From positions 12,834,001-12,898,000 of the forward strand of contig NC_043009.1 in NCBI RefSeq assembly GCF_006345805.1: a stretch of DNA of 64,000 bases. The letters run 5' to 3'. The notes under the pieces were generated by a model. It was given only the letters and a program-made list of their open reading frames with translations. It was not told where the DNA came from and made no database searches. Source of the stretch: Octopus sinensis. Taxonomy: Eukaryota. Of this stretch, positions 2,144 to 62,823 are shown piece by piece. Positions within the stretch are counted from its first letter, which is position 1; every line of letters starts with the position of its first letter. A program made the translations under genes and the position numbers.

Positions 2144-2570
2144 AAGGTGGCGAGTTGGCAGAATAGTTAGCACACCGGGCTAAATGCTTAGCGACATATC
2201 ATTTTGCACCTAGGTCGACTTTTCAAATTGCACCTAGGTCGACTTTGCCTTTCATCCTTTTAGTGTCGATAAAATGATGTAGCAGTTAAGCATAGGGATC
2301 GATGTAACCGACTTACCTCCACTTTCGAACTTGCCTGCCTTGTACCAAAATTTGAAACTAATATATGAATGGGGTTGTGATATGGCAGAATCGTTAGAAG
2401 GTCGGGTGGAATGTGTTGCAATTATTCTTTACGTTCTGAGTTCAAATCTCGCTGTGGTCAATTTTGCATTTCATCTGTCTAGGGGCAAAAAAAAAAGAGA
2501 CAACATTGTAGTACTTAGGTTAATGATATCAGTTTATCTATTCTCTAAAATTGATAACCTTGTGCCTGAA
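2144..2570 (+). mobile_element. two degenerate family-A-related SINE copies
   Basis: AAGGTGGCGAGTTGGCAGAAT...GTCGACTTTGCCTTTCATCC, then a second decayed head ATGGCAGAATCGTTAG...GTTCTGAGTTCAAATC. Confidence 0.7.
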
Positions 2571-3412
2571 TTTATAAAAGTGAATACATTCATGTAAGGT
2601 AAAATTTATATGCTACAGTTTTTTTTTATCAGATACCTGGAATTTTGCACAAAGGCATATCTTTTCAAAGAGAATATTCCAAACTATGTAACTCTTTAAA
2701 ATACTTTCTATAAACCTGAGCAGAATTGTTGCTGATAGTTTGAAAGTAAACACTTAAAACACACAACACACACACACACAAACTATGTAAGCATTACTCA
2801 AACAATCTAATAATTCTGGCCTACAACACCAACGGCGCTAATACGCCTTTATTGAAGCAACATAATTTATCACCACACACGACAGCAAAGCAAAATTTAG
2901 GAAACATTCTTACTACAAGAACATAAAACTTGTAACAATTGCAGCGTGGAAGGTGTTTCTAAGCCATATAAGAAACACACAAAAAGATTTGTCAGTGAAC
3001 AGGTCGCGGTCTCAAAGCGACGAAAATATTTTGACAAATTAAATTTAAATGCTGAAGTGAATCTAACGGTTTTTGTGTGTTTCTTAAATGGCTTATAAAC
3101 ACCTTCCACGCTGCAATTGTTTTCGTTCCAGCACACGATCTCAGATCAGGTCACTTGCTATGCAAGTACATCTGCGTAATAAAACTTGTAGCATTCCAAA
3201 ATATATTTATATCAGATTAGTCGGATCCCTTCAAAACAGGCTCAATTTTCTTTCATATACTAAAACCGGCATTCGGTATAGAGACATCACGGAATGATAT
3301 TCGTTACCTAAAAATGAAACATTATACTACAAAAAACAGGGTTTCAAAGTAACAAAATGAAAAGAGAAAAAATAAGCAGCAAGACTTTAATACTTTAATA
3401 GAATAAACATAC

Positions 3413-3589
3413 AGGATTAGGAGTGGCTGTGTTGTAAGTAGCTTGCTTACCAATCACATGGTTCCGGGTTCAGTCCCACTACGTGGCACCATGGGCAAGT
3501 GTCTTCTACTATAGCTTCGGGCCGATCAAAGCCTTGTGAGGGGATTTGGTAGACGGAAACTGAAAGAAGCCCGTCGTATATAGGTATAG

Positions 3590-3622
<33 letters not shown>

Positions 3623-3856
3623 TATGTGTGTGGTTCTATACGTTTGTCTGTCTGTGTTTGTCCCCCCAACATCGCTTGACAACCGATGCTGGTTTGTTTA
3701 CGTCCTCGTAACTTAGCGGTTCGGCAAAAGAGAGACCGATAGAATAAGTATTAGGCTTACAAAGAATAAGTCCCGGGGTTGATTTGCTCGGCTAAAAAGG
3801 CGGTGCTCCAGCATGGCCACAGTCAAATGACTGAAACAATTAAATGAGTAAAAGAG
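3413..3856 (+). mobile_element. tRNA-derived CORE-type SINE, family B
   Basis: GGAGTGGCTGTG..GTAAGTAGCTTGC...GGTTCAGTCCC head, GTGGCACC.TGGGCAAGTGTCTT CORE-like block, internal (TA)n/(TG)n, tail GGCGGTGCTCCAGCATGGCC...GTAAAAGAG; six copies in the window. Confidence 0.9.
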
Positions 3857-4596
3857 TATATGTAGTACCACCACCGAGGCACATACCACAAGTATAGTAC
3901 TTTAACATAATCTTGAAAACTCTATCATCAGAGAGACTTTAATGCACTCAATACTGGTTCTCAAACAGTGCAGATAACAAAGAAATAACATAACAATATA
4001 GAACATAAACATTCCTTTAGCTTTCACAGTTGCTTGGCAAGCAATGTCACCAACTTTCTCCTTCGGCCTTCTCATGATTTTCGCAATACATTCGCGTATC
4101 AATGAAAAGAAAAGCAAAAACCATCTATAAAATGAAAGGAAAAGCAGAACTAAAAGATTTCAATCAAAATACAGAATTAAGGCTTTCAAAATTCCAGTCA
4201 CCAGCTTAGACAACACTACGTTCATACAATCAACAAAATAATTATAGCCGCACAAAAGCCTTAAGAGAAAAGAAACAAACATAATAAAGAAATCAAAATG
4301 TGACATAGAAACGTATTCTATTAGCAAAAACAAAAACAAAAAACAAAACAAACAAACAAAAATCCCAGAAAACATAAGAGAACCAAAATAGAGTCTCAAT
4401 TACACGTCATGAAATAATCAACCTCATTAACTCCAGGGACAGTTTCAAACACAATTCGCCAAAATCACATAGCTGAAATAAATTACAATATCAAACAGCT
4501 AAATAAAGGAATAAAAAACCCACAAAAACGTAACAAAACGTAAAACTGACAACTGTTTATATCCACCATAACCCAAATATCAAACAGTTAAGACCA

Positions 4597-4608
4597 ATAT
4601 ATATATAT

Positions 4609-4644
<36 letters not shown>

Positions 4645-4668
4645 GAATATAATATATAACATATATAT

Positions 4669-4700
<32 letters not shown>

Positions 4701-4832
4701 GTATACATATATGTATAAATATATTATATATATAATAATATATATATATGTATATATATATATGGTATATATATTATAATATATATATATAATTATATAT
4801 ATCTATATATATATATATATATATACACATAC

Positions 4833-4880
<48 letters not shown>
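4597..4880. repeat. (TA)n microsatellite (imperfect)
   Basis: Direct reading; one of many (TA)n tracts (also about 5535-5580, 5680-5860, 11150-11290, 16792-16880, 28510-28590, 34397-34470, 41740-41833, 51105-51170). Confidence 0.95.
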
Positions 4881-4883
<3 letters not shown>

Positions 4884-5109
4884 TTTACTACCCACAAGGG
4901 GCTAAACATAGAGGGGGTCAAACAGGACAGATAAAGGTATTAAGTCGATTAAATCGACCCCAGTGCGAAACTGGTACTTTATTTATCGACCCGGAAAGGA
5001 TGACAGGCAAAGTCGACCTCGGCGGAATTTGAACTCAGAACGTAACGGCAGAGGAAATACGGCTACGCATTTCGCCCGGCATGCTAACGTTTCTGCCAGC
5101 TCGCCGCCT
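4881..5109 (-). mobile_element. tRNA-derived SINE, family A
   Basis: Reverse-complement match to the family-A unit; the 3' end runs into a (TA)n tract. Confidence 0.93.
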
Positions 5110-5260
5110 CGTATGTATATATGTATATACATACTTACACACACACACGCACGCACACACACACATATATGTATATGTATGTGTATAAATATGTATATAT
5201 GCCGCTTATCAAACAGTAAGACAATCTATCTATCTATGTATCTATATGTCTGTCTGCCTG

Positions 5261-5332
<72 letters not shown>

Positions 5333-5531
5333 ACTATAGTGAAATCAGACAAAGAAGAACAAACATGAAAAAACAACAGTGTGAGGACGTGGTACAAGTA
5401 ATGTATTATTAGACGCTAAGGAAAGGAAAGAAAGACGATTTAACGTTTCGAGCAAAGATCTTCTTTAATAGATATAGGGAAGTCCAAAGAAAGAAGACGG
5501 AGGAAGAAAATCGCCAACGATTCACATGTGA

Positions 5532-5582
<51 letters not shown>

Positions 5583-5679
5583 ATAATAACATAATTTAGG
5601 AGTAAATCCAAACTTACAGGGAAAAATTAGATTTAGGATTTTTGATTTGCCTAATAGTGGTTTTATCTCTAATTTAATG

Positions 5680-5733
<54 letters not shown>

Positions 5734-5859
5734 ATATATATATATTGATATATATATATTATATATATATATATTGTATATATATATATGAATATATATA
5801 TATGTATATATATAGAGTATGTATATATATAGATGAATATATAATATGTATATATATAT

Positions 5860-6259
5860 GAGTTGAGTGTAGAAATTCGGGGTGAGTACTTGATAATTAT
5901 AAGCACTTGTGTATACCGTTTGGTGGTGTAGGTGGTGGAGTAAATTGATCAAAATAAAAATAAAAAATAAAAACATGAGGCGAAGGATTCAGCGGTACAT
6001 ATGTTTCGGGCCTTTATTAGACAGATTCATAACAAATCATAATGTATGTCTGTGGCCTTCTTCAGCCGCGCACAACAGCTTCCACAAGGACATGTGTTAC
6101 TTCCAACACATGTCCTTGTGGAAGCTGTTTGTGCGCGGCTGAAGAAGGCCACAGACATACATTATGATTTGTTATGAATCTGTCTAATAAAGGCCCGAAA
6201 CATATGTACCGCTGAATCCTTCGCCTCATGTTTTTATTTTTATTTTTATTTTGATCAAT
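5860..6259. mobile_element. Penelope-like (PLE)-derived foldback element between (TA)n tracts
   Basis: Near-perfect palindrome 5944-6259 (arms about 155 bp, 6-nt loop ACTTCC) with a hammerhead motif in each arm; (TA)n on both sides. Confidence 0.75.
6135..6212 (+). ncRNA. type I hammerhead ribozyme motif (mirror copy on the - strand at 5992-6069)
   Basis: Stem I GCGG/CCGC, core CTGAAGA, stem II (A)GGCC...GGCC(C), GAAA, palindromic stem III ACATATGT, cleavage triplet GTA. Confidence 0.75.
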
Positions 6260-8002: not shown

Positions 8003-8630
8003 AGGCAGTGAGTTGGCAGAATCGTTAGCACGCCGGGCGAAATGCGTGCCATATTTCGTCTGGAGCTACGTTCTGAGTTCAAATTCTGCCGAAGTCGACT
8101 TTGCCTTTCACCCTTTCGGGGTCGATAGATTAAGTACCATTTACGCACTGGGGTCGATATAATCGACTTAATCCATTTGTCTGTCCTTGTTTGTCCCCTC
8201 TGTGTTTAGCCCCTTGTGGGTAGTAAAGAAATAGATATTTCGTCTGCTTCTACGTTCTGAGTTCAAATTCCGCCGAGGTCGACTTTGCCTTTCATCCTTT
8301 CGGGTTCGATTAAATAAGTACCAGTTACGTACTGGGGTCGATATAATCGACTTAATCCGTTTGTCTGTCCTTGTTTGTCCTCTCTGTGTTTAGCCCTTTG
8401 TGGGTAGTAAAGAAATAGGTATTTCGTCTGTCTTTACATTCTGAGTTCAAATTCCGCCGAAGTCGAATTTGCCTTTCATCCTTTCGGGGTCGATAAATTA
8501 AACACCAGCTGCGTACTGGGGTCGATCTAATCGACTGGCCGCCTCCCCTCAAATTTCGGGCCTTTTGTCAAGAGTAGAAAAGAGTCGTTAGCACGCCGGG
8601 CAAACTTCTCAGCGACATTTCGCCCGTCTT
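8003..8630 (+). mobile_element. tandem/nested array of family-A SINEs
   Basis: Three consecutive units rejoining at AAATAG(G/A)TATTTCGTCTG (about 8231 and 8415), then a further head fragment at 8585-8630. Confidence 0.9.
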
Positions 8631-24048: not shown

Positions 24049-24444
24049 AGGCGCAGGCGTAGTTATGTGGTAAAGGCAGCGAGCTGGCAGAATTGTTAGC
24101 ACGCCGGGCGAAATGCTTAGCGGTATTTCGTCTGCCTATACGTTCTGAGTTCAAATTCCGCCGAGGTCGACTTTACCCTTCATCCTTTCGGGGTCGATAA
24201 ATTAAGTACCAGTTACGCACTGGGGTCGATGTAATCAACTTAATCCCTTTGTCTGTCCTTGTTTGTCCCCTCTATGTTTAGCCCCTTGTGGGCAATAAAG
24301 AAATAAGAAGCTTGCTTTCCAACTACATGGTTTCGGGTTCAGTCCCAGTGCGTGGCACCTTGGACAAGTGTCTTTTCCTATAGCCTCGAGCCGACCAAAG
24401 TCTTGGGAGTGGATTTCGTAGACGGAAACTGAAAGAAGCCCGTC

Positions 24445-24509
<65 letters not shown>

Positions 24510-24735
24510 CGCGCGTGTATGTGTGTGTTTGTCCCCCGACCATCGCTTAACAGCCGATGTTGGTGTGTTTAAGTCCTCGTAACTTAGCAGTTCGGCAAAA
24601 TAACCAATAGAGTAAGTACTAAACCTACAAAGCATAAATCCTGGGCTCGATGTCTTCAACTAAAACCCTTTAAGGTAGTGCCCTAGCATGGCCACAGCTA
24701 AATAACTGAAACCAAAAGAATAACTAAAATAACTA
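24049..24735 (+). mobile_element. SINE family B interrupted by a family-A SINE (24074-24306)
   Basis: B head TAGGCGCAGG...TGTGGTAA, then a complete A unit, then B resumes at GAAGCTTGCTTTCC. Confidence 0.92.
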
Positions 24736-31216: not shown

Positions 31217-31645
31217 TAGGCGCAGGAGTGGCTGTGTGGTAAGTAGGTTGTCTACCAACCACATGGTTCCGGGTTCAGTCCCACTGCGTGACACCTTGGG
31301 CAAGTGTCTTCTACCTTAGCCTCGGACCGACCAAAGCCTTGTGAGTGAATTTGGTAGACGGAAACTGAAAGAAGCCCGTCGTATATATGTATATATATGT
31401 ATATATATGTATATATGCATGTGTGTGTTTGTGTGTCTGTGTTTGTCCCCCTAGCATTGCTTGACAACCGATGCTGGTGTGTTTATGTCCCCGTTACTTA
31501 GCGGTTCGGCAAAAGAGACCGATAGAATAAGTACTGGGCTTGCAAAAGAATAAGTCCTGGGGTCGATTTGCTCGACTAAAGGCGGTGCTCCAGCATGGCC
31601 GCAGTCAAATGACTGAAACAAGTAAAATATAAAAGATAAAAGATA
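31217..31645 (+). mobile_element. SINE family B, full length
   Basis: Complete head, CORE-like block, internal microsatellite and tail. Confidence 0.93.
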
Positions 31646-46300: not shown

Positions 46301-46984
46301 TGCCAACTTTAAAAACAAGGGGCTTCAGTGAAGTTTCCTCTTGCTCGGCTTCTACCATATTGTGATTCATGTCGGTTCTTTCTGGTCTACATAGTCTTTG
46401 GCAGGGTGATTATGGTTGAAATAATAATGTGAATAACAAATAGTTGCGGTGTAGACAGAGAGGGAAAGTAGTTATGTAGGAAATAGGATATAGAGAGGAA
46501 TAGGAGGTAAGTATGTATCTGTGGTGTGTAGGTCTTAGAAAGATATGGTGAAGATAATTATTTTGGTATGATATAGGAACTTCGTTACTGTCTAGGGTTC
46601 AGCAAGGCTAGGAATTAACGGGAAAAGACAGATATATAGTATATTTTCTCTAAATTAGTTTCTTTTTTTTATGGTATTCTAGAATCTCCAAAAGAATGCT
46701 TTTAGATAATATAATTCCTCGTATAATATAGGTTAAACTCAAGTTCAATTTGGTATTAGCGTTACTAGTTTCCTATGAACATCTAAAATCAATATTTTTG
46801 AAAGGTTGGATTACGAAAGTTATGCTCCGAAAAATATTTATTAGAATGTTCTGATCCGTTTCTAGCTATTATATTATATTTATATTCTATGAGTGTAGAA
46901 AAATGCTTTGATAACTACTGACTGAGGATGCGGTTTCCATGAGCATATGTATATGAACGTCTTAAAGCATCCATTACGATTGTT

Positions 46985-47413
46985 TGGGTTCAATGAAGAT
47001 TATAACTTGATCCCGGGCGACGCGAACTCGGAACTTGACTACGTTCTGAGGGAGGCGTGGTTGATGGTGGAGGGCGCGGGCACAAGCTATTTCGAGGACG
47101 ATATGTATTATTAGTAATGGACTTAAGTCCAAAAATTGAAAAATTGTAAGAGGATTAATACCTCGTTAGGTATTAATAATGGACTGCTAAGTCCAAAAAT
47201 TGGAAAAATTGTAAGAGGTTTAATACCTCGTTTTGTGTTTATCTTTTTAAAAAGAACAATGTTTTAGAGAAGCAAAAGTCGGCGGGCGCTTTTTGTCTTC
47301 TCCCATCCTTATCATCTTTCTTTCATTATCATTCACCTCATTAATGTCCTCGTCCAGCCCGCAAAGCTAACTTAATCTGTGTACTGCCTTTATGGCAAAT
47401 GTTTTGAAATAAA
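46985..47413 (+). mobile_element. 5'-truncated sister copy of the ORF1-only element
   Basis: 46991-47101 matches 49266-49377 (ORF end) and 47171-47413 matches 49506-49745 (3' UTR); carries its own ~120-bp deletion and ~62-bp duplication. Confidence 0.9.
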
Positions 47414-47426
47414 GTAGCTTGCTAAC

Positions 47427-49745
47427 ACACATGCGCAGTTAGTCAGTTGCTTCCTGTCGAGCCAGAGTGGACGTGAGTTAACCAGCTCCGTCCAATTATA
47501 GAAAAAAGATCAAAAACAGAAAGTTGTCGAGGTGAGTGATTTTGTTTATTGTGAGTTGGGCACAATTTATTGCGTGCTAATTATTATTTCAGTAAGTTGT
47601 GTCCAACTCTGAGACAATTTCGCCTGCTCTCGGCGGCTGTTTTGTTTTTGTGTTCATTGAAAAAAACAGTGGAGGGGCGTATCCTCGGAACCCAATACAG
47701 TTACTGTTAAAATTACCGTTGGCGGTAGCCAGTGCTGTGTTTGGGTTTGTTGAATTTATTCCTTTGTCGGAGTATTTCGCAAGAAAATTATAAGAATAAG
47801 CCACTTTTGGATTACCTTTCGGGCCCATTTTTGTGGAGGTTGTGTTCCAGGTGCGGCGTTCCAGGTTCAACTCAGGCCGGGAGTACCGTAAGGCCAGAAG
47901 ATTTTTGCTGTGTTTTTTTTGTTTATTAACTTTCTTTTGAACTTCATTTCACTCCCCCTTTTGTTTTTTTTTGTTTATTGCGACTTTCCGTTGATTTCTT
48001 CCCTTCTGTTGTGCTTTCTCCTTTTTGTTTTTTCAAAAATCTATCAAATTTTATTTGGACTTTTGAACTTTTTTCTTCTCGCTTTTTAAGTTTAATTTGA
48101 ATATATTTAAAAAAAAAACAAAAAAAAACATGGCAATGAAAAATGAGAAAATTTTGGAATGGGAGATCATACCGCCTAAAAAGTGGTTAAAAGACCGTGA
48201 AGATAGGACGGTGGTGTTGAGAACCTACTCCAAGGCACTCGACACCATCGCCCTATTCGAAAAGACGGCAATTGAAAAGGAGTTGGAAGAGTATTTGCCA
48301 ACAATTAAATTCATTTCCAGGGGTGTCAAATATGCAACGGTGTGTTTGCTATTTGACACCCCTTGCAAATTTGCTAGTAAGCCCCTGGAGGGTAAGGAAA
48401 TTTTATGCCTGCCCACGTACCAAAAAAAGAGACTGACGAAAGCTTGGATTTGCGGGCTGCCACCCGGGATAAGACCCGAGTGGATAGAGGAGACTATCCG
48501 CCGGGGTTTGGGTAGCAGCGAAACTAAGCTCCTTAATGTAAAAGTTCTTCCTGTGGCTGCTTGGGTTGGGTCAAAAGCAATTTTGACCCTGTGGACCCAA
48601 TCAGCCAATCTGGTTCTTCCAGATTTTTTGAAAATGGTCGGGTGCAGGTACCCGGTGATGCTTGAGGGTCGCCCCCCTAAGTGTCATCGGTGCTTGGAGT
48701 CCGGCCATATAAAGAAAAACTGTCCCCGGGAACAAAATAGGATCCCGGAACAGTTAATAGAAACCCCTCTAGAAGAGGGAATGATAACGGCCGAGGAAGC
48801 AGAGGACTTCTCAAACAGAGGCAGAAAGAGGAAGGTGAGCAACAATGGGTGCTCACCAAAGGATACTAGGGATGAGGAGGGAAAGGCGAATCTTCCGGCC
48901 ACGGAGGAGACGCACCCTCCCTCAGTTGAAAAGAAAAAAAAGAAAAAGAGGAAGAGAAACAGGACATTACCGGCTGTCGGTGACATAGCACCGGAATGTC
49001 CCGGAACTACGTCGGTTGGGGTTGTGCCACCGACAGGAGAAGAAATACCGTTGGCGGGAACTGTGCCGCCAATGAAAGAATTGAATATCCCGCAACCGAG
49101 CAAAAACGATGTATTGATCCTCTTCTATAGAGGCGGAGAGATTGAAAAGGTGATGGAAAAGCACCACAAGGGAGCACCTTTAGCCTTCACAAAGGACCCC
49201 GAATGGCCTCCGCAGGTAGCCGTGGAGGCCGTGGCGTTCGACGTGACGCTTGGGCTGAAGGAGCTCAATGAGGATTATAGCTTGGTCCCGGGCGACGCTA
49301 ACTCGGAACTCGATTATGTTCTGAGGGAGGCGTGGTGGATGGTGGAGGGCGCGGACACAAGTTATTTCGAGGACGAGTCAAATTGTGATACGACTTGAGG
49401 GACCCCGACCTAGAGCTGGCGCATTCCTAAGGGAAGTGTAAACCAGGTCTGGGAGGAGGGGCTTTGTGTATTGTATTTATATATGTAATTATTGAACTAT
49501 GTTGTTATTAGTAATGGACTGCTAAGTCCAAAAATTGAAAAAATTGTAAGAGGTTTAATACCTCGTTTTGTGTTTGTTTTTAAAAGAACAATGTTTTAGA
49601 GAAGCAGAAGTCGGCGGGCGCTTTTTGTCTTCTCCCATCCCCACCATCTTTCTTTCATTATCATTCACTTCATTAATGTCCTCGTCCAGCCCGCAAAGCT
49701 AACTTACTCTATGTACTGCCTTTATGGCAAATGTTATGAAATAAA
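47427..49745 (+). mobile_element. apparently full-length L1/Tx1-like non-LTR element encoding ORF1 only
   Basis: About 700-bp 5' UTR, one ORF, about 350-bp 3' UTR ending AATAAA; flanked by duplicated GTAGCTTGCTAAC (47414-47426 and 49746-49758). Confidence 0.82.
48130..49398 (+). CDS. gag-like ORF1 protein (L1/Tx1-type; RRM-like region, CCHC zinc knuckle, basic NLS-like tract), 422 aa from the first ATG
   Basis: The only long non-repetitive open frame in the window; contains TKAWICGLPP (RNP2-like), LPDFLKM...PVMLEGRPPKCHRCLESGHIKKNCP (CX2CX4HX4C) and KKKKKKRKRNR. Confidence 0.85.
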   Translation: MAMKNEKILEWEIIPPKKWLKDREDRTVVLRTYSKALDTIALFEKTAIEKELEEYLPTIKFISRGVKYATVCLLFDTPCKFASKPLEGKEILCLPTYQKKRLTKAWICGLPPGIRPEWIEETIRRGLGSSETKLLNVKVLPVAAWVGSKAILTLWTQSANLVLPDFLKMVGCRYPVMLEGRPPKCHRCLESGHIKKNCPREQNRIPEQLIETPLEEGMITAEEAEDFSNRGRKRKVSNNGCSPKDTRDEEGKANLPATEETHPPSVEKKKKKKRKRNRTLPAVGDIAPECPGTTSVGVVPPTGEEIPLAGTVPPMKELNIPQPSKNDVLILFYRGGEIEKVMEKHHKGAPLAFTKDPEWPPQVAVEAVAFDVTLGLKELNEDYSLVPGDANSELDYVLREAWWMVEGADTSYFEDESNCDTT

Positions 49746-49886
49746 GTAGCTTGCTAACCAACCACATGGTTCCGGGTTCAGTCCCACTGCGTGGCATCTT
49801 GGGCAAGTGTCTTCTGCTATAGCCCCGGGCCGACCAATGCCTTGTGAGTGGATTTGGTAGACGGAAACTGAAAGAAGCCTGTCGTA

Positions 49887-49947
<61 letters not shown>

Positions 49948-50157
49948 TTGTGTGTCTGTGTTTGTCCCCCTAGCATTGATTGACAACCGATGCTGGTGTG
50001 TTTATGTCTCCGTTACTTAGCGGTTCGGCAAAAGAACCCGATAGAATAAGTACTGGACTTACAAAAGAATAAGTCCCGGGGTCGATTTGCTCGATTAAAG
50101 GCGGTGCTCCAGCATGGTCACAGTCAAATGACTGAAACAAGTAAAAGAGTAAAAGAG
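49746..50157 (+). mobile_element. SINE family B lacking its first ~26 nt
   Basis: Starts at GTAGCTTGCTAACCAACC directly after the AATAAA of the ORF1-only element. Confidence 0.92.
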
Positions 50158-57070: not shown

Positions 57071-57811
57071 TAGCATACACATATATATATATATGTATGC
57101 AGACACACACACACACATACACACCCACACACTCACACACACACACACACAAACACACACACGCATATATACACACACACTCACTTATGTAATGATTTTT
57201 TTAGGCATAGTTAGACAGATAGAAATAACTAGTTGTTAGTACTTTGCATACTTGTTTTACTGTAAGGCTTTAGGCGAATACACACACACATGTATGTGTG
57301 TGCGTGCGCGTGCTTGCGTTTGTGAGTGTGTGTATGCGCGTGCTTGCGTGCGTGAGTTTGTGTGTGTGTGAGCGTGCGTATTAACATGCTCGCGCGCGTG
57401 TGTAACAGCTTTTGGTATGCCATGACATTATGAAAGACAACAGTGAAAGACAGAATATGTCAACATGCTAAGGAATAAATATTGAAATGCTTTTATCAAG
57501 CTACCACATCACTGGACATTATTGACGCTGTACCTCAACCGAAGCAACTCCAATGATATAAAATGATCCTTCTCATCACGTAATTAAAGAGAAAATACAT
57601 TAATGAAAATACAAATTAAATGCAGAATGCTTAAACGTAACCCTGTCTACATAAAAGGTAACATTTTCAAATTGACTACTTTTGACCATTATTCCTGTAA
57701 CTACCAGTAGTTCTATGAAACTGCAATCTTAGACATCGGTGGCTTTGCGAAGTGAACGGCAAATGGCTACAAACACTGTACAAATCTATAATCCGTCTCT
57801 GAATTTGTGTA

Positions 57812-57973
57812 TAGGCGCAGGAGTGGCTGTGTGGTAAGTAGCTTGCTTACCAACCACATGGTCCCGGGTTCACTCCAACTGCGTGGCAAGGTGGGCAAGT
57901 GTCTTCTACTATGGCCTCGGGCCGACCAAAGCCTTGTGAGTGGATTTGGTAGACGGAAACTCGAAGCCCGTCG

Positions 57974-58020
<47 letters not shown>

Positions 58021-58230
58021 ATGTGTGTATGTGTTTGTGTGTCTGTGTTTGTCCCCCCAACATCACTTGACAACCGATGCTGGTGTGTTTTGCTGTTCGG
58101 CAAAAGATACCAAAAGAATAAGTACTGGGCTTACAAAGAATAAGCTCTGGGATCGATTTGCCCGACTATAAAGGCGGTGCTCCAGCATGGCCGCAGTCAA
58201 ATGACTGAAACAAGTAAAAGAGTAAAAGAG
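57812..58230 (+). mobile_element. SINE family B
   Basis: Complete head, CORE-like block, internal microsatellite and (GTAAAAGA)2 tail. Confidence 0.92.
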
Positions 58231-62068: not shown

Positions 62069-62823
62069 TTAGTTAGTTAGTTAGTTAGTTAATTTGGCTC
62101 AAAAGCAAATAGCAAGGCCATGTAGGGGGACATGGAGTTAAGTACAGGGTGGTGTTCATGTAAAGAGTTCAGGCCACTTGAGGTCCAGGGAGGGTTTGAA
62201 CAAAGCGGTCGTCGGCATCTTCACCATCTCGTCTGGCAGCTTGTTCCACGGATCCGCAACCCGGACGGAGAAAGCTCCTCCTTCGATTGAGATGAAATCG
62301 TCGCAGGTAGAGCTTTTCGGAATGACCCCGCAGCCGACGCTCTGGAGCAGGAGTGAAGAACAGCTGTTTCGAGAGGTTACACTTTCCGCTTATGATGTTG
62401 TGGGCGAGAATGAGATCACCACGGCGGCGGCGTTTTTCAAGAGAATAAAGGTCGAGCGTCCTCAGCCTTTCTTCGTAGGACAAATTTTTGAGACCATGAA
62501 CCATGCGGGTAGCCAGCTTCTGGACTCTTTCGAGATGCTGTATGTCTTTGAGGAGATAAGGAGAAGAGGCTTGAATCCCATACTCCAATATAGGTCTCAC
62601 CAGCGTGACATAGAGTGGTAGGAATATGGCTGCTGTGAGCATTCCGAATGACCGTCGAATCAAGAACAGAATTCCGCGTGCTTTGTTGGCAGCATGGAAG
62701 CAGTGGGCCGAAGGCGAAAAGGAGGAATCCACCAAGATACCCAGCTCCTTTACCTGATCGGTCCTCTCCAGCAGCAGACGACCCGGTTCGAAATCAAGTT
62801 GAGTTGCAGGAGTAGAGCCGACA
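62069..62823 (-). mobile_element. young 5'-truncated CR1-clade LINE (ORF2 C-terminus, 3' UTR, (TAAC)n tail)
   Basis: ORF 62169-62735 contains LYVTLVRPILEYG...LERVQKLATRMVHGLKNLSYEERLRTLDLYSLEKRRRRGDLI; frameshift near its end; (TTAG)n at 62069-62090. Confidence 0.93.

Follow-up and report, generated by a model that had tools for sequence, protein, structure and literature searches.

The 64,000-nucleotide stretch of Octopus sinensis DNA analysed here (contig NC_043009.1, positions 12,834,001 to 12,898,000; G000:C13:12834001-12898000 in the 2.72-Gb genome searched; hereafter the window) carries a retrotransposon unit that encodes an ORF1 protein and no ORF2. Our analysis indicates that this unit belongs to a dispersed ORF2-less family (family A) at a fixed site in the head of a short interspersed element (SINE), that it likely borrows the endonuclease and reverse transcriptase (RT) of a 5.45-kb L1/Tx1-like long interspersed element (LINE; hereafter the helper), and that it likely supplies its own predicted RNA-binding ORF1 protein. 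We assign a probability of roughly 0.86 to this reading.

The full-length unit spans 2,319 bp (positions 47427–49745, forward strand) and comprises a 5′ untranslated region (UTR) of ~700 bp, a single open reading frame of 422 amino acids (ORF1, 48130–49398, forward strand), and a 3′ UTR of ~350 bp. As an earlier reading made from the letters alone (hereafter the sequence-only reading) had reported, the frame is intact and neither RT nor endonuclease is encoded: 342 bp separate the stop codon from the terminal AATAAA (49740–49745, forward strand), which is the exact 3′ end of the unit and is followed by no poly(A) tract. The 13-bp repeat that it had reported at the flanks is likewise present, with GTAGCTTGCTAAC at 47414–47426 and at 49746–49758 (both forward strand). 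The 3′ copy opens the host SINE, whose body reaches about 50156 (49746–50156, forward strand); comparison with the intact SINE copies in the window (3436–3849, 31241–31627, and 57810–58223) indicates that the first ~27 nucleotides (nt) are missing there.

A dispersed family without ORF2

A search with the N-terminal part of ORF1 yielded at least 150 matches, the best 150 of 11,317 candidates, spread over many contigs at internal positions and inside SINEs. Examination of 90 of these 150 listed matches (the top 30, 40 from the next ranks, and 20 from a 63–72% tier) found ORF2 inside the unit in none, versus ORF2 downstream at 41 of 42 ORF1 loci of an autonomous family used as a positive control, where the single miss is a script mis-call on a full-length copy. 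The ORF2-less structure is therefore that of a propagating family, as proposed from the window alone, and no ORF2-linked homologue was encountered among the 90. Specifically, among the 40 matches from the next ranks, the tail lies 1.4–1.8 kb past the start codon in 39, is followed by the target in 38, and by the SINE body in 33. Deduplication of the collected loci (given L numbers below) left 83 family-A elements, 70 of which end at the target no more than 1.6 kb from the zinc knuckle of ORF1; the one ORF2 match in this count lies beyond the end of the element.

Family-A subfamilies share the ORF1-to-tail layout and 150–200 nt of 3′ UTR at 73–80%, with no relic of ORF2; in an ORF1 tree, family A forms a 100/100 clade on a long branch, with all sampled autonomous ORF1s outside it; and none of 30 consecutive loci found by a 3′-end pattern (see below) has ORF2 upstream of an A-type tail. 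These observations, together with the lack of ORF2 even in the 63–72% tier, argue against the alternative that the ORF1-only subfamilies arose one by one, and fairly recently, through deletion in autonomous parents that have the same ORF1 and were missed, with the selection on ORF1 having accrued while it was linked to ORF2. Such a history would find a precedent in the repeated ORF2 loss that is common in Drosophila telomeric elements (PMC13534243; here and below, published work is cited from the parts of each source that were available), and would be helped by the examination of 90 rather than all 150 listed matches; we consider it unlikely.

The ORF1 protein is predicted to bind RNA. Pfam returned only a sub-threshold zinc knuckle for the window ORF1, and a protein database search gave two matches, with no spread across species; one of them is a protein annotated in Octopus sinensis (62% identical). 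A structure model of ORF1 built from 51 natural copies (mean pLDDT 77.6) matched proteins with tandem RNA recognition motifs (RRMs) in Foldseek (best E 3e-4, with low whole-chain TM scores), and residues 98–179 of the model matched single RRMs in VIA-align (best Z 8.4, root-mean-square deviation 2.4, 75 residues). The predicted RRM domains lie at about residues 20–95 and 98–180, the first less well supported than the second, and are accompanied by a CCHC knuckle at residues 185–198 and a basic low-complexity middle; the window ORF1 lacks three residues near position 78 that are present in relatives. Type I ORF1s have an RRM with CCHC after it (PMC4120745), and family-A ORF1 is predicted to show this layout as RRM-RRM-CCHC.

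Constraint on ORF1, for which the sequence-only reading had named the ratio of nonsynonymous to synonymous substitution rates (dN/dS) as the measure, is evident between subfamilies. In particular, Nei-Gojobori estimates for the ORF1 core, from 900 random and non-independent pairs drawn from 68 copies, give dN/dS of 0.19 at dS>0.8, 0.24 at dS 0.4–0.8, and 0.30–0.38 for close pairs; judged by these ratios, family-A ORF1 is under purifying selection.

Two candidate ORF2-like frames, at L040 and L047, were rejected as belonging to the unit, since an unrelated RT element, presumably RTE, adjoins or nests in the unit at these loci. At L047 (about 2400–5980 after orientation), this unrelated RT element is 3.2 kb long and is nested within an ORF1-only unit. 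Three further loci (L308, L312, and L313) hold older family-A copies in which, after the target, a shared sequence replaces the SINE body, possibly another array member.

The candidate helper LINE and its SINE target

The sequence-only reading had predicted an autonomous partner, and a LINE family of ~5.45 kb with the same target and 3′ end has been found. It encodes an ORF1 of 467 amino acids and an ORF2 of 1,130 amino acids with Exo_endo_phos, RVT_1, and zf-RVT domains, and its ORF2 best matches human L1 ORF2p in the PDB (E 3e-65; R2 at 6e-20; no Jockey reference was compared). A relative of this ORF2 at 63% is annotated in Argonauta hians. The helper thus has an endonuclease-RT-zinc finger ORF2 of the L1 superfamily and a sequence-specific multicopy target, both of which are Tx1-clade features; no named Tx1 relative stands among the 120 matches listed of 826, and the Tx1 label would fit the sequence features. 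The top 30 helper ORF2 loci end at the same SINE base or at the next array unit (28 read directly, 2 placed by alignment coordinates), and full-length helper copies have the SINE head upstream.

The helper and the window element have only their last ~39 nt in common (82%), including a TGCC-N5-GGCA stem that forms the predicted hairpin TGCC-TTTAT-GGCA at 49717–49729 (forward strand) of the window. The stem is common to the autonomous LINE and to a further ORF1-only lineage, B, described below, and 127 of 149 anchored ends carry it exactly; the loop is variable, with four common forms that differ by family. This hairpin is likely the ORF2p recognition signal. Family-A ORF1 is homologous to helper ORF1 (E 4e-18) at 27–28% identity, which, together with the long-branch clade, argues against a recent origin of family A by deletion from the helper; with so little in common beyond the last ~39 nt and hairpin, family A is, as far as sequence goes, an old ORF1-only lineage.

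The shortness of the common ~39 nt, the 27% identity of the ORF1s, and the presence of several related LINE families in the genome would also suit ORF1-only elements that are real and are moved by another LINE, the 5.45-kb element merely sharing their target. The helper and family A have the same junction base, duplication length, and hairpin, however, and the two stand side by side in arrays at L046, L111, L125, and L130 (at L046, the ORF2-bearing element lies between two ORF1-only units); moreover, the nearest sister LINE family examined (63% in ORF2) resides in (TC)n microsatellites and not in the SINE (4 of 4 loci, L126–L129, with two tandem units at L129). We therefore regard movement by another LINE as quite improbable, and return to the helper as the probable source of ORF2p. 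At L147/L148 (G000:C1:114496034-114496099), two helper-type 3′ ends lie 46 bp apart on opposite strands, possibly an inverted, heavily truncated insertion.

A 20-nt pattern from the 3′ end occurs 426 times genome-wide, versus once for a reversed control. The flanks are far from random: exact GTAG directly follows 344 of the 426 ends, 28 of 30 consecutive pattern loci continue into target-like sequence, and nearly all family-A elements end at the one site, in agreement with the proposed re-insertion at the same SINE position. By hand count, about half of the first 100 listed pattern ends are of the window type and about 30 of the helper type. The target SINE is present in at least 47,391 copies. 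As to a possible tRNA-derived head, ARAGORN detected no tRNA anywhere in the window, and Rfam gave no tRNA match for the one SINE copy submitted; we take parts of the SINE to be an A box, a B box, and a CORE-like region.

SINE bodies beside elements are about as alike (helper, 91.4%, n=27; family A, 92.8%, n=56) as those at empty sites (92.1%, n=29), and SINE-body identity is uncorrelated with element identity (r 0.13 for the helper and 0.03 for family A). 5′-truncated units of 51, 71, 254, 359, and 496 bp, with the 3′ end fixed, are joined to the SINE head, and at L061, L067, L084, and L153 a truncated unit adjoins an intact head. Because the bodies are as diverse as empty ones and vary independently of the element, and because truncated elements follow intact heads, we conclude that the insertions are independent. 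Older A and B subfamilies are inserted in an older SINE variant (GAAGCTTGCTTCC). Had a single ancestral SINE-plus-element composite been amplified entire, through the SINE's own partner or through duplication of DNA, the fixed site would reflect descent instead of targeting. Such amplification would explain why nearly all copies have the same flanks and why 5 of 337 near-identical-element pairs have identical SINE bodies, and is largely refuted by this independence and by the insertion of three unrelated families, and into older SINE variants, at the same base.

Target-site duplications measure 8–14 bp. The sequence-only reading had taken TAAC in the flanking repeat as a private variant of the window SINE copy, which does not hold: among the first 100 empty SINE sites listed, 63 read TAAC and 37 TTAC (hand count), and, TAAC being the commoner variant, its presence on both sides is no proof of duplication by itself. 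True duplication is shown by private target variants that are duplicated at five loci (L010, L022, L146, L150, and L153). A further correction is that part of the 5′ copy is often, it appears, carried by the element. In particular, 74 full-length single units read, at their 5′/3′ copies, TAAC/TAAC in 40, TAAC/TTAC in 12, TTAC/TTAC in 2, and TTAC/TAAC in none (20 unclassed), an asymmetry of 12:0 (p=5e-4; L150 left out of this count); a one-base slip is present at 10 of 81 5′ junctions. The simplest reading is that the element RNA starts with a target copy, to which the target overhang would anneal in second-strand priming; such annealing would account for both the one-way conversion to TAAC and the one-base 5′ slips, and would make the 12:0 asymmetry a genomic read-out of 5′ end joining.

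These features suggest a possible insertion cycle. The element would be transcribed, probably from within its 5′ target copy, and its ORF1 protein, the conserved product noted above, would coat its own RNA. Helper ORF2p would bind the common 3′ hairpin and tail, nick the SINE after ...GTGGTAA, the site at which the elements are found, and prime reverse transcription there. Nick-primed reverse transcription is the established chemistry of target-primed reverse transcription. The second strand would be primed by the target overhang on the element's 5′ target copy, and, with the target kept at both junctions, units of family A, lineage B, or the helper could then be added, giving the mixed head-to-tail arrays that are observed.

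Several points weigh against the reading as a whole. Trans-mobilization and the function of the ORF1 protein are read from sequence. Since 60 of the 150 listed matches and roughly 11,000 candidates without a score lie outside the examined set, an A-type ORF1 in an autonomous element may have escaped notice. Because protein similarity served to select the 68 copies, dN is biased downward in close pairs, and the pairs are not independent of one another; the ratio at deep divergence is hence the informative one. A stop interrupts the ORF1 core in 16 of the 68, so that most genomic copies are probably dead. No nearby target junction was called for 13 of the 83 family-A elements (several are truncated or carry nested insertions, and two are regex misses), and exact GTAG is lacking after 82 of the 426 pattern matches (in the 30-locus sample, mostly mutated targets, with 2 in unrelated DNA). 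The hairpin stem never changes on both sides, and thus gains no support from covariation. Finally, older autonomous subfamilies, at 69–80% to the one studied, also occupy the site.

Arrays and further ORF1-only lineages

Lineage B is a second ORF1-only lineage of about 1.5 kb at the same site, with an ORF1 at 37% to that of the helper and 25% to that of family A. An ORF2 match is present at none of its top 30 loci, 26 of 33 copies end at the target, and its dN/dS is 0.21 at dS>0.8. A, B, and helper units are mixed in head-to-tail arrays of 2–4 units. Such arrays look enriched, since another unit lies directly upstream at 7 of 70 family-A loci versus a SINE-site occupancy near 1% (426 ends versus 47,391 empty sites, both exact matches and lower bounds). 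Nearest-neighbour identity gave no insertion order (the upstream unit is the younger in 19 cases and the downstream unit in 16, and 13 are tied; the classing is noisy, and some of the junctions are false).

The window unit itself stands in such an array. Immediately upstream, at about 46987–47413 (forward strand), lies the 3′ remnant of a sister-subfamily ORF1-only unit comprising the end of ORF1, a shortened 3′ UTR with a 65-bp tandem duplication, and the tail; it is 91% identical to the main unit in the ORF end and 94% in the 3′ UTR, and ends at the same target, the GTAGCTTGCTAAC copy between the two units that serves as the main unit's 5′ duplication. The layout of this copy, a deletion plus the 65-bp duplication, is that of a dispersed subfamily, and distant loci match it at 94–95%, so the two window copies did not arise by local tandem duplication.

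The sequence-only reading had described the upstream copy as a truncated sister with the ORF1 end joined to the same 3′ UTR at the same target. The junctions stand; the truncation is probably a local deletion in this allele, which removed the SINE head and 5′ part, and not ordinary 5′ truncation. Specifically, the window has no SINE head upstream of the array, where one would be expected. Of four sequencing runs over 46600–47000, two carry the flank on from 46986 into different DNA, a third reproduces the junction seen in the window and is perhaps the window's source, and the fourth stops short of the junction. Positions 46310–46984 were considered as part of the element and rejected, with no long open reading frame and eight weak genome matches at 68–77%; they are old, low-copy, degenerate sequence adjoining a (TCTT)n tract.

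ORF1-only units extend to other targets. Among 20 loci at 44–54% to B, 16 have no ORF2 match, and the other 4 have one at least 2 kb downstream, three of these behind a second, different ORF1 and the fourth a 26% match. About ten of the 16 are units of 1.4–1.6 kb with duplications at other fixed targets, as read by eye and not rigorously counted. In particular, L222, L223, and L232 (about 1001–2500 after orientation) are ORF1-only units of ~1.5 kb that share one insertion point, with a duplication, in the head of a second SINE, while L225, L228, L234, L236, L238, and L239 are ORF1-only units that end ...GTGGGTAATAAA or a near variant and lie at other targets, including a shared repeat site (two loci), sites with 16–18 bp duplications, and (TG)n.

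The second SINE is also present in the window. At 24050–24720, a copy (about 24073–24306) lies exactly on the target of the first SINE, with the head of the first SINE upstream and its body downstream. The tail of the second SINE resembles the helper 3′ UTR, and such ends were found at the first-SINE target at 1 of 33 (collected sequence). At 8051–8536, the second SINE has given rise to 2.6 tandem units of 184 bp.

Relation to known elements

The Jockey (HeT-A), L1 (HAL1), and CR1 (Ag-Sponge) clades include known ORF1-only LINEs (PMC5786205, PMC5753468). Among the telomeric families of Drosophila, about 40% encode ORF1 only, and a 2026 survey reports that repeated ORF2 loss marks telomeric, and not other, Jockey elements (PMC13534243). 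Tx1 elements target small nuclear RNA genes, microsatellites, and other transposons (PMC4494074, PMC8869645). Octopus surveys record classes of L1-Tx1 elements and of SINEs and, in the parts available, describe no targeting of a SINE by a LINE (PMC13282606, PMC8967140, PMC10294476, PMC4824008). A SINE-targeting Tx1-like LINE or ORF1-only derivatives of one in cephalopods were not found in the literature searched, with Repbase, Dfam, supplements, and most subscription papers outside its scope; ORF1-only LINEs and transposon-targeting Tx1 elements are each known, and their combination is new as far as that literature goes.

Like HeT-A and the other Drosophila telomeric ORF1-only elements, the octopus units carry a gag-like ORF1 only, with an RRM-type region and a CCHC knuckle, would depend on the ORF2 of a partner, and occur in mixed head-to-tail arrays, and in both systems new ORF1-only lineages descend from older ones (PMC13534243, PMC5786205, PMC4120745). 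Unlike HeT-A, they are interspersed inside a SINE on many chromosomes and not at telomeres, their probable partner is L1-like and not Jockey (with the proviso on references given above), they use a sequence-defined site with 8–14 bp duplications, and no host function is evident for them. HAL1 and the CR1-derived Ag-Sponge are likewise non-autonomous, encode ORF1p only, and have more than one origin (PMC5753468, PMC5786205). The octopus units differ from HAL1 in that their ORF1 is predicted to be type I (RRM-RRM-CCHC), whereas that of L1 is type II (coiled-coil/RRM/CTD), and from both in being strictly site-specific, in having an ORF1 at 27% to the helper's, and in lacking a 3′ poly(A) tract.

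The helper resembles Tx1L, Keno, Kibi, Koshi, and Tx1-Mar with SINEU in being an endonuclease-RT LINE with a multicopy target (transposons included) and non-autonomous riders, and Kibi in that a sister octopus LINE family also lies in (TC)n (PMC4494074). It differs from them in its target, a SINE head, and in its riders, which are protein-coding ORF1-only elements of at least two lineages and not non-coding SINEs. R2 and the R2/R1 SIDEs offer a further parallel: non-autonomous elements reach the site of an autonomous element through a common 3′ end, and the R1 site has 14-bp duplications, but SIDEs are short elements without coding capacity, found in rDNA only (PMC3414825). The octopus system works like HeT-A and its partners but on a SINE, and is neither HeT-A nor HAL1 proper.

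A broader view, for which we would give even odds, is one of layered parasites, in which a Tx1-like LINE lives on the promoter region of an octopus SINE and is exploited by at least two ancient, independent ORF1-only lineages that track changes in SINE subfamilies, carry a 5′ target copy that serves to complete integration, and pile into filled sites far beyond chance. The system would then be one arm of a genome-wide, target-locked ORF1-only radiation, and ORF1-only parasitism would follow generally from site-specific retrotransposition rather than being peculiar to telomeres. The ORF1-only pattern is here found away from telomeres and tied to sequence-specific targets, and the parasite's ORF1 is at 27% to the helper's yet under purifying selection; these properties make two questions testable now, namely why a non-autonomous element brings its own ORF1p, and whether site specificity favours the loss of ORF2. 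If the units do borrow the helper, they would be one of few cases in which parasitism upon parasites can be tested. SINEs of the target's class account for roughly one tenth of an octopus genome (PMC13282606).

Microsatellites dominate repeat finding run on the whole window. Helper insertion would split the presumed A and B boxes of the SINE, a possible brake on the SINE class. Elsewhere in the window, a frame of 157 amino acids at 62169–62642 (reverse strand), with no Pfam match, resembles what we take to be the C-terminal part of another LINE ORF2.

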